Below, piece after piece: positions 754 through 1,595 of a stretch of DNA of 10,482 bases. The stretch is from a virus. Its lineage: Duplodnaviria; Heunggongvirae; Uroviricota; Caudoviricetes. The notes under the pieces were generated by a model. That model did no database searches. It was not told where the DNA came from and saw only the letters and a list, made by a program, of their open reading frames with translations. The stretch's first letter is position 1. Each line of letters opens with the position of its first letter. The position numbers and the translations under genes are program-made. The stretch is from IMG/VR virus record IMGVR_UViG_2534681701_000011; one strand, given 5' to 3'.

Positions 754-1517
754 CAAAGCCCTGACGATCAACATCGACCATTACGGTGGCATTCGGTTTA
801 TTGCCTGTCAGATAATAATAATCAACAACCGTCATACCCTGGGTATATTTCCCCTGTGTTTCCACGCCAACCCAGCGCTCAACAGAGGTAAATAACTCCG
901 GTTTCAACAGCCAGGCGATGGTGCATGGGTCATGCAGTGGTGCGCCGACAAAGCCCCATTTTTCGTCTTTATGATATTCGAGGAAGAAATCCAGCAGTTC
1001 GGCAACAATGGTTGAAACAGGGTTGCCAATCGCGCGGAAACGCTCAGTGTCTTCAACGTGGATTTGTGCTTTGTGAGTAACATCCAGACCGGCCATCACC
1101 ACCGGGATCCCTGACTGGAAGACAATTTCTGCCGCTTCCGGGTCAACGTAAATATTAAATTCAGCCGCAGGCGTCCAATTACCCAGCCCCATTGCGCCGC
1201 CCATAATCACGATACGGGCAATTTTGCTATGCAGTTCCGGATGGCTATTGAGCAGCAAGGCAACGTTAGTTTGCGGTCCGGTAGACACAATCGTGACAGG
1301 TTCCGCACTTTCGCGCAGCGTTTTCGCCATCAGCTCTACCGCCGTACAGTTTTGCGGTGCGAACGTCGGTTCCGGTAATGCCGGGCCATCCAGACCGCTT
1401 TCGCCGTGCACATTGTCCGCGATAATCAACTCACGCATTAACGGTTTTACCGCACCGCCTGCTACCGGAATATCGGTGCGATTAAGCAAGGTCAGCATAC
1501 GCAGAACATTGCGTAAG
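754..1517 (-). pseudogene. rihA: Nucleoside hydrolase gene (RihA-like) remnant, truncated at both ends: 3' end by IS1, 5' end by the prophage terminus
   Basis: ORF 749-1498 translation (…[24 protein letters not shown]…) matches my recollection of E. coli RihA from about residue 45 to 299. In-frame similarity continues upstream to 1516 (LRNVLRMLT) and then breaks. The N-terminal DxDxxxDD motif is absent. The C-terminus reads …VDRQGFG* where IS1 begins. Confidence 0.7.
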
Positions 1518-1595
1518 TGATGCGCCGCGCGATAAATGCACTCTATCTTGTGCGATAAATGGCATCCACGCGGCGTTTCATTATTTGAAAAAGAA
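1518..1595. mobile_element. Putative Mu-like transposable-phage terminus (invertase-proximal end) with candidate transposase-binding repeats
   Basis: Reading inward from 1518: TGATGCGCCGCGCGATAAATGCAC…, which matches the recalled Mu right end (TGAAGCGGCGCACGAAAAACGCGA) at 17 of 24 positions. GCGATAAATG occurs twice, 23 bp apart (1529-1538 and 1552-1561), and GTTTCATT at 1574-1581 resembles Mu end sites. Host rihA homology stops exactly here. Confidence 0.5.

Follow-up and report, generated by a model that had tools for sequence, protein, structure and literature searches.

The locus described here raises the question of which kind of foreign DNA interrupts the Escherichia coli gene rihA, and by which process it arrived there. 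The window, that is, the whole stretch of 10,482 nucleotides that was analysed, corresponds in reverse complement to bases 1-10,482 of locus L005. This locus begins at the end of draft contig AQET01000023.1 within a tape-measure gene. The source contig reaches only this tape-measure gene (window position 10482), and sister contigs reach about 26 kb into the element. Sister copies, that of AR_0013 among them, supplied the sequences of the transposase, the ATPase and the Mor end. We hold with high confidence that window position 1518 is the right terminus, i.e., the end with the tail-fibre and invertase genes, of a transposable myovirus prophage that is about 37 kb long, belongs to the BcepMu branch and is inserted in E. 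coli rihA at codon 45/46.

Intact rihA of strain 510016 (locus L011) reads ...ATTGCGTAAG followed by GTTTTTTCTGG, and at the same place the window reads ...ATTGCGTAAG followed by TGATGCGCC. From this alignment it follows that host identity stops exactly at position 1517 and that the foreign DNA opens with TG at 1518, which confirms to the base a boundary that the sequence-only reading had placed at 1516/1517 with TG as the next bases. Whatever the adjoining gene, matches to the tip in other E. coli genomes begin at 1518, apart from chance extensions of a few bases before it. On its other side the rihA fragment, which encodes a 249-aa ORF (749-1498) with domain PF01156, meets an IS1 copy whose left inverted repeat ends at 753; compared with the intact gene, the final 38 bp of rihA are lost there. 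This IS1 copy does not belong to the phage. Hence rihA is inactivated twice, by the phage and by IS1, in the E. coli lineage that comprises P0298942.x, 2845350 and related isolates.

Features of the window. Strands are given relative to the window; a dot marks features without strand.
Feature	Position	Strand	Remarks
IS1 copy, clipped at window start	1-753	-	InsA/InsB Pfam families on sister contig L005; IS1 terminal sequence read in the window
rihA 3' fragment, codon 46 to near the C-terminus	754-1517	-	100% identical to rihA of strain 510016
CGTAAG, junction copy of the 6-bp target-site duplication	1512-1517	.	Based on six of seven complete copies and on the far-junction ORF
Terminal 23-bp unit TGATGCGCCGCGCGATAAATGCA	1518-1540	+	TG tip, with the 3'-CA cleavage end on the other strand; core GCGATAAATG (1529-1538) is the first putative transposase-binding site
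Second 23-bp unit CTCTATCTTGTGCGATAAATGGC	1541-1563	+	Core 1552-1561, second putative transposase-binding site; spacer 1541-1549 variable
Third conserved block ...GCGGCGTTTCATTATTTGAAAAAGAA	1564-1595	+	Between site 2 and the invertase stop codon
Gin/Cin/Hin-type serine DNA invertase, 190 aa	1596-2168	-	Resolvase and HTH_7 domains; 76% identity to Mu Gin
Invertible tail-fibre segment, ~1.6 kb	2232-3854	.	229-bp inverted repeats 2232-2460 and 3626-3854, 96% complementarity
Alternative fibre C-terminus	2240-2752	+	Inside the invertible segment
Tail-fibre assembly gene	2752-3366	+	Inside the invertible segment
Tail-fibre gene	3373-4638	-	ORF list; Phage_fiber_2 and Collar domains on sister contigs
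P2-like baseplate and tail genes	4667-10482	-	Pfam families on L005; order as BcepMu gp44-gp51
gpI	4667-5245	-	
gpJ	5238-6341	-	
gpW	6332-6679	-	
gpV	6734-7330	-	
gpD	7327-8481	-	
gpX	8469-8681	-	
gpU	8681-9565	-	
Tape measure, C-terminal part	9565-10482	-	Cut by the end of the window and contig

Megablast was used to search a set of 5,426 complete E. coli genomes. Window positions 1518-10482 were matched at 98-99.5% identity in at least 91 of them, and the match always started at 1517/1518. When complete E. coli genomes were searched with a junction probe, the tip was found, from exactly 1518 onwards, next to idi, cbtA, srlE, zraS, lptF, lom, phoA, irp2, yfaL and other genes; further neighbours were an NRPS gene and lambdoid tail genes. 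The Mor terminus (...TCTAATCA) likewise adjoins many genes, its position being fixed by many independent insertions, and more than 20 different flanking genes were recorded at each of the two ends in complete E. coli genomes. As the same tip stands, base for base, beside dozens of unrelated genes, the element must transpose. An insertion in rihA was present in none of the 5,426 complete genomes.

Copies of the element are known in IAI39, CE10 and AR_0013. According to their coordinates, complete copies span 36.6-39.7 kb, the longer ones containing IS or intron insertions. The terminal 683 bp are 99.4-99.6% identical in the prophage extracts PV468777.1 and CP025887.1. The match to Escherichia phage PhiKM (PQ738613.1) begins only at window position 3719, so that the fibre/invertase end of that phage probably differs or is missing. 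Strain 510016 is the only other listed genome with both a 100%-identical rihA and a copy of the prophage. The copy in this strain is located in yehR and carries an IS100 insertion, and its entire early region has been removed by an IS1-mediated deletion; as a source of data on the far end it was uninformative. The source copy may be defective in the way seen in 510016.

Both junctions of the element were retrieved from seven complete genomes. All seven two-ended copies had the termini TG…CA (TGATGCG… and …TCTAATCA). Six were flanked by perfect 6-bp duplications (ATGTGC, GCTAAT, TGTACG, CGTAAC, CTTAAC and CTTGCT), and one, that of L3_E36, had no duplication. For the far junction of the rihA insertion, the ORFs that run from the rihA start into the Mor end were predicted for duplications of 3 to 9 bp and looked up as exact sequences. 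The ORF predicted for 6 bp (…PEKTLRD, stop), which comprises 48 aa and consists of RihA residues 1-44 plus TLRD, was present on 17 contigs of E. coli isolates (records EMW36672.1, ENA21832.1, ENB02444.1 and ENB44943.1; strain 2845350 and others). The ORFs predicted for duplications of 3, 4, 5, 8 and 9 bp were absent by this exact look-up. The 7-bp ORF (47 aa) does occur, but solely in the form of proteins annotated as 'partial', which a contig break in intact rihA would yield. Given the 6-bp duplications in six of seven copies, the presence of the 6-bp rihA ORF and the absence of the 5-bp one, the duplication is CGTAAG and not GTAAG (1513-1517), the 5-bp candidate initially put forward.

The 249-aa C-terminal fragment encoded in the window corresponds to ENA22210.1, ENB02497.1 and other records; it is found in E. 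coli P0298942.x and belongs to the same submission series as the 48-aa stub. In one genome the two records, ENB02444 and ENB02497, are separated by 53 accession numbers, which would be roughly the number of genes in a prophage. Thus the 5' portion of rihA has been displaced and not lost, as transposition into the gene had led the sequence-only reading to expect: in the same strain set it occurs joined to the opposite end of the element. With respect to both footprint and termini, the element agrees with described systems, as TG…CA termini characterise BcepMu-related prophages (PMC2628397) and a 6-bp duplication is the footprint of B3/Tn552-family transposases, that of Mu being 5 bp (PMC8705779).

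The outermost DNA of the element contains the decamer GCGATAAATG twice, at a distance of 23 bp from start to start (1529-1538 and 1552-1561). Across the window this decamer was counted twice against 0.6 expected occurrences; 25 of 200 shuffles reached the same number, so that the count is by itself not significant. A direct repeat of at least 10 nt appeared in 55 of 20,000 dinucleotide-preserving shuffles of positions 1513-1595 (approximately 0.3%). The repeat is considered more than chance because three further ends have its motif at identical distances from their tips. In the window, at the Mor end and at both ends of BcepMu, G.G.GATA..T is located at offsets 10 and 33 from a tip that begins with TGA. 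Reading the four ends inward, the motif was common to all eight 23-nt units, at unit positions 10-20. These units are TGATTAGACTTGAGATAAATGAC and AGGGAATAAGTGAGATATTTATG at the Mor end, TGAAGCGCGGCGCGATATTTCAG and CACGTCGACGCGCGATAAATTCG at the right end of BcepMu, and TGAAGAGAGGTGAGATATTTCCA and AGGGAGAACGCGCGATATTTCCG at its left end.

A more distant relative, Escherichia phage Phi06_2974 B, is only about 69% identical in the invertase region but retains 70 of the first 83 nt, including 22 of the 23 nt of the terminal unit. The differences concentrate in the spacers between the motifs and not in the motif itself. Since the motif is present in all four BcepMu-type ends examined, the repeats are credible transposase-binding sites. 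Judged by their sequence, they very probably constitute a pair of such sites, with one pair at each end and the two pairs in opposite orientation. The repeat and its 23-bp spacing, which the original reading had compared with transposase-binding sites, are confirmed, and binding is the predicted function.

The block that follows the second unit is near-identical in Phi06_2974 B despite the approximately 69% identity of the adjacent gene; it may serve as a third site for binding, or the invertase transcript may have its 3' end there. Part of this block (1569-1580) repeats 1518-1529 imperfectly and in inverted orientation (inverted repeat I1). Two candidate functions of this pair were weighed and not adopted: (i) a terminator, against which the 39-nt loop speaks; (ii) an inverted site similar to R3 of Mu, as G.G.GATA..T is missing at 1569-1580 in both orientations.

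Between the stop codon of the invertase gene and the tip there are just 78 bases (1518-1595), which leaves no space for a mom-like gene. The early observation that the invertase is placed like gin in Mu, with no room for mom beyond it, was correct in this respect and is complemented by the degree of identity to Gin. In the sister assembly L008 the interior of the invertible segment is flipped relative to L006, which represents the same clone. The tail-fibre gene has its constant N-terminal part outside the segment and its current C-terminus within. The Gin-type invertase flips the 1.6-kb fibre segment and has no part in integration. A mildly unexpected side observation was that two P1-like phages carry the BcepMu-type end together with its invertase, starting exactly at the transposon tip; the remnant of the end in these phages reads TGATG(T/C)GCCGCGCGATAAATG. 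This hints that a transposable phage may once have landed in a P1-like genome and so have been the source of an invertase and fibre cassette.

The complete gene content was read from the AR_0013 copy, which lies inside lom of a lambdoid prophage; lom resumes after Mor. From the invertase end, the order is invertase, invertible fibre genes, P2-type tail genes, Mu-type head genes (Mu G, Mu F and a DUF935 portal), lysis genes and, in the middle of the element, a helix-turn-helix repressor. Beyond the repressor, the opposite strand encodes small DNA-binding proteins, a DUF3102 protein and a 589-aa protein annotated with an 'integrase catalytic domain' and, continuing outward, an ExeA-family ATPase, Gam, gp16/GemA and Mor. 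The early region is therefore inverted, with Mor and GemA at the far end and the transposase and ATPase several kb inward. By comparison of annotations, the order in the complete copies is that of BcepMu, gene for gene.

The 589-aa protein of the AR_0013 copy is 69% identical over the full length (581 aa) to gp09 of BcepMu, which is annotated as 'Tn552/IS1604 rve transposase'. Its sole Pfam domain is rve (PF00665), and NCBIfam yielded just sub-threshold matches to IS481 and IS21 transposases. The neighbouring ATPase has an AAA_22 domain and occupies the position of BcepMu gp08. The two proteins match phrog_310 ('transposase') and phrog_296 ('DNA transposition protein'), respectively. BLASTP detected no similarity of the transposase to MuA (E = 0.47) or of the ATPase to MuB (E = 2.3). 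A phmmer search of the transposase against PDB sequences gave only weak matches to retroviral integrase cores (E of at least 0.007), with neither MuA nor TnsB among them. The expectation of MuA/MuB-like genes at the other end thus failed in both identity and location: the transposase resembles BcepMu gp09, and it is encoded several kb inward. The match to phrog_310 covers profile positions 129-687 only, as compared with a start at position 6 for MuA, and therefore an equivalent of the N-terminal domain of MuA (I-alpha) is probably absent. The transposase is linked to MuA solely by the PHROG profile that both match and by a short motif resembling a helix-turn-helix, SRATLLRRLKEV versus SRATAFRRIQQL in MuA, the latter falling in what we take to be the I-gamma subdomain.

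Burkholderia phage BcepMu (AY539836; genus Bcepmuvirus; Summer et al. 2004, as cited in PMC2628397) is accordingly the closest known system. It shares with the E. coli element the gene order, the ExeA-like ATPase, the TG…CA termini, a Mu-type head and a P2-type tail, in addition to the related transposase and the two sites per end, which have the same offsets and lie 23 bp apart. It differs in having an acyltransferase gene (gp53) at its right end, where the E. coli element has the Gin-type invertase and the invertible fibre segment. The hosts also differ, Burkholderia as against an enterobacterium, and the nucleotide sequences have diverged. E. coli copies and isolates of the same species differ from the copy in the window by insertion site.

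A competing affiliation is with phage Mu itself (AF083977). A true Mu-type (Muvirus) prophage would possess a MuA/MuB pair, Mu-like R1-R3 sites and the 5-bp duplication GTAAG. Both phages are transposable, have TG…CA ends and transposases that match phrog_310, and carry at the right end a Gin-type invertase together with an invertible fibre segment. Kinship with Mu is favoured by the 76% identity of the invertase to Gin and by the presence of Mor, GemA, Gam and Mu-type head genes. The resemblance to the right terminus of Mu, which the sequence-only reading had noted, proved real as well: identity to Mu attR extends to 17 of the first 23 nt, whereas random 23-mers of the window match at 5.8 positions on average and at 14 at best in 20,000 draws; against Mu attL the score is 9 of 23. 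Moreover, CGATAAATG also occurs in Mu R2. There it lies one base closer to the tip, however, which results in a spacing of 22 bp instead of 23 bp. There are further differences. Mu duplicates 5 bp and the E. coli element 6 bp; c-ner-A-B of Mu are located at the left end and read inward, whereas the early region of the E. coli element is inverted; com and mom, found between gin and attR in Mu, are absent; the tail is of the P2 type; and the transposase, with rve as its only Pfam domain, and the ATPase lack pairwise similarity to their Mu counterparts. The Mu-type reading, which we regard as extremely improbable, is refuted by the 6-bp duplications together with the identity of the transposase. 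The affiliation proposed at the outset holds as far as a Mu-like transposable phage is concerned and fails for the Mu type, since the transposase is related to those of BcepMu and Tn552. The element is Mu-like in the broad sense of the literature, but it is not a Muvirus.

Two other origins of the junction were weighed against transposition of a BcepMu-type phage. The P2-like tail genes (gpD, U, X, V, W, J and I) and the frequent occurrence of invertases in P2-family phages would fit a P2-like or other temperate prophage integrated site-specifically at an attachment site within the gene. The probability of such an event is close to nil. Dozens of unrelated sites carry the identical end, the 6-bp duplications differ from insertion to insertion instead of sharing an att core, and in complete copies neither a tyrosine integrase nor an att or tRNA site was found; many sites, private duplications and the missing integrase refute this origin, and rihA as a preferred site is at odds with its being occupied in none of the complete genomes. 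The earlier preference for transposition over site-specific integration, and the view of the locus as a transposable-phage end in rihA, are borne out by the same observations and by the TG…CA termini. It is also very unlikely that the 1517/1518 junction arose secondarily, for example through a deletion or inversion mediated by IS1 that moved part of a prophage next to rihA. An IS1 copy does lie 764 bp away at the truncated rihA and has apparently deleted neighbouring genes, and in the related strain 510016 IS1 has deleted part of a copy of the element. However, the junction falls exactly at the tip of the element, where an IS1 event would leave IS1 sequence, and the reciprocal junction (rihA 5' part, CGTAAG, TGATTAG…) is present in the same strain set. 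Primary transposition of a BcepMu-type phage into rihA is thus the reading on which the following is based.

The likeness of the right end to Mu attR is mildly unexpected, given transposases that look unrelated. It is conceivable, though rather doubtful, that an end-recognition code is common to very distant transposable-phage transposases. Among transposons, Tn552 has at each end two 23-bp motifs in direct repeat, to which its transposase binds. In PMC8705779, Pseudomonas phage B3 and the Tn552 group are described as having the 6-bp duplication footprint and TG…CA ends like the E. coli element, and the Tn552-related transposase group is attributed there to Toussaint & Van Gijsegem 2018. B3 differs from the E. 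coli element by a Mu-like orientation of the early region and a siphovirus tail, and Tn552 is a transposon of 6.5 kb and not a phage.

The mechanism proposed here combines an observed anatomy, i.e., the termini, the 6-bp duplication, insertion at multiple sites, the paired motifs and, in sister copies, a transposase with an AAA+ partner, with steps modelled on Mu and Tn552. By this analogy, the Tn552-related DDE (rve) transposase would bind the two direct repeats that each end contains in its outermost 46 bp, the predicted site core being G.G.GATA..T, one per 23-bp unit. It would then pair the mutually inverted ends and nick them at the 3'-CA termini. The adjacent ExeA-like AAA+ ATPase would choose the target, and the ends would be joined to phosphates with a 6-bp stagger between them. 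CGTAAG would then be left on both sides, either by repair, in the case of infection, or by replication in lytic growth. In the Mu paradigm, prophage insertion after infection is conservative transposition followed by repair, and not replicative; on this point the replicative route named in the sequence-only reading would need correcting. As a consequence of such an insertion, the 3' fragment of rihA would remain by the invertase end and the 5' fragment would come to lie about 37 kb off, by the Mor/GemA end, where read-through would give the 48-aa RihA(1-44)-TLRD stub.

The finding is correct but ordinary: this type of element is already known and is common in E. coli, and no new biological question is opened by its presence in rihA. 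PHASTER-type tools already call such E. coli regions 'BcepMu' (PMC10955171). No experimental work on this particular E. coli phage was found in the searchable literature. BcepMu-type prophages are usually reported merely as fuzzy 'BcepMu-like' regions, and the main value of the present analysis is one of annotation, with the prophage boundary set to base 1518. The corrected footprint, consisting of a 6-bp duplication, TG…CA termini and a Tn552-related transposase, helps in the automated delimitation of BcepMu-type prophages.

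Three conserved blocks lie near the transposon tip of this BcepMu-type prophage, and the third, next to the invertase gene, is almost invariant even in a relative with just ~69% identity in the invertase gene. Part of it is an imperfect inverted copy of the tip itself, and the motif GCGTTTCA within it is also found in R2, the second site of the Mu right end. The transposase, a Tn552-related protein read from the sister copy AR_0013 (locus L002, 2473-4239), shows a single noteworthy local similarity to MuA, in which residues 38-49 (SRATLLRRLKEV) align with MuA residues 220-231 (SRATAFRRIQQL; BLASTP E = 1.4, not statistically significant on its own). 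The MuA stretch belongs to the Iγ end-binding subdomain, and the likeness could lie behind the similar end sequences of the element and Mu.

Features of the window discussed in this part
Feature	Window coordinates	Remarks
IS1	1-753	removes the last 38 bp of rihA
Duplicated hexamer CGTAAG	1512-1517
Terminal 23-bp unit	1518-1540	begins at the transposon tip
Third conserved block	1564-1595	GCGGCGTTTCATTATTTGAAAAAGAA
Imperfect inverted copy of terminal 12 nt (1518-1529)	1569-1580	within the third block
Inverted repeats	2232-2460 and 3626-3854	229 bp, 96% complementary; flank the ~1.6-kb tail-fibre segment
Tail-fibre region	3373-4664	internally repeated fibre motifs

Target sites were compared using the six hexamers duplicated at complete copies together with that of the window (ATGTGC, GCTAAT, TGTACG, CGTAAC, CTTAAC, CTTGCT and CGTAAG). 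Position 3 is T in six of the seven and position 4 is A in five, hinting at a weak target preference, for which n = 7 is too small to draw a conclusion. The prophage of L3_E36_ETEC (NZ_LR882997.1; loci L017 and L018) is the only one of the seven complete copies without a target duplication; its flanks read …GGGGTATG up to one junction and AATATTCC from the other, and its invertase end lies within a lambdoid gpJ gene. The missing duplication may reflect an adjacent deletion or a rearrangement that involved different copies.

Strain 510016, whose rihA is 100% identical to that of the window, has the same prophage in yehR, in degraded form (NZ_CP025851.1 797500-829519; loci L012 to L014). IS1 takes the place of the early region from the repressor through the Mor end, and the DUF3486 (small terminase-like) gene is interrupted by an IS100 insertion. 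Genes annotated as yehR family harbor the prophage in both 510016 (NZ_CP025851.1 829519) and 3359 (NZ_CP103739.1 3176849-3214413); despite this shared annotation, the flanks at the invertase end differ between the two strains.

In the source lineage rihA was disrupted twice, by phage insertion and by IS1 truncation. Beyond IS1, sister contig L005 (region 9785-12000) continues with a 195-aa ORF, ybeL (DUF1451) and leuS; the hscC-to-ybeQ region, which comes after rihA in K-12, is missing there, suggesting that it was removed by an IS1-associated deletion.

The interior of the tail-fibre segment is flipped between L006 and L008, sister assemblies of the same clone, and the invertase is thus active. 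Gene calls in the tail-fibre region differ among sister assemblies: some have a single 421-aa fibre ORF starting at GTG 4638, compatible with the ORF list of the window, others a 44-aa plus a 310-aa ORF, and the fibre fragments of AR_0013 are annotated as pseudogenes in RefSeq.

A homologue of the terminal 78 bp plus invertase was found in the P1-like Escherichia phage vB_EcoM-673R5 (ON470615.2 64046-64687; L027 1501-2142) and in a second P1-like phage, ON470617.2. Similarity in this pair starts at the exact transposon tip, with TGATGTGCCGCGCGATAAATGTA matching the terminal 23-bp unit at 21 of 23 positions, and the sequence upstream, on the lydC side, is unrelated. The terminal piece is absent from the other cin/invertase hits, including P1-like phage JL22, whose matches begin well within the query. 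Judged from these alignments, the P1-like genome segment looks like a remnant of a BcepMu-type right end.
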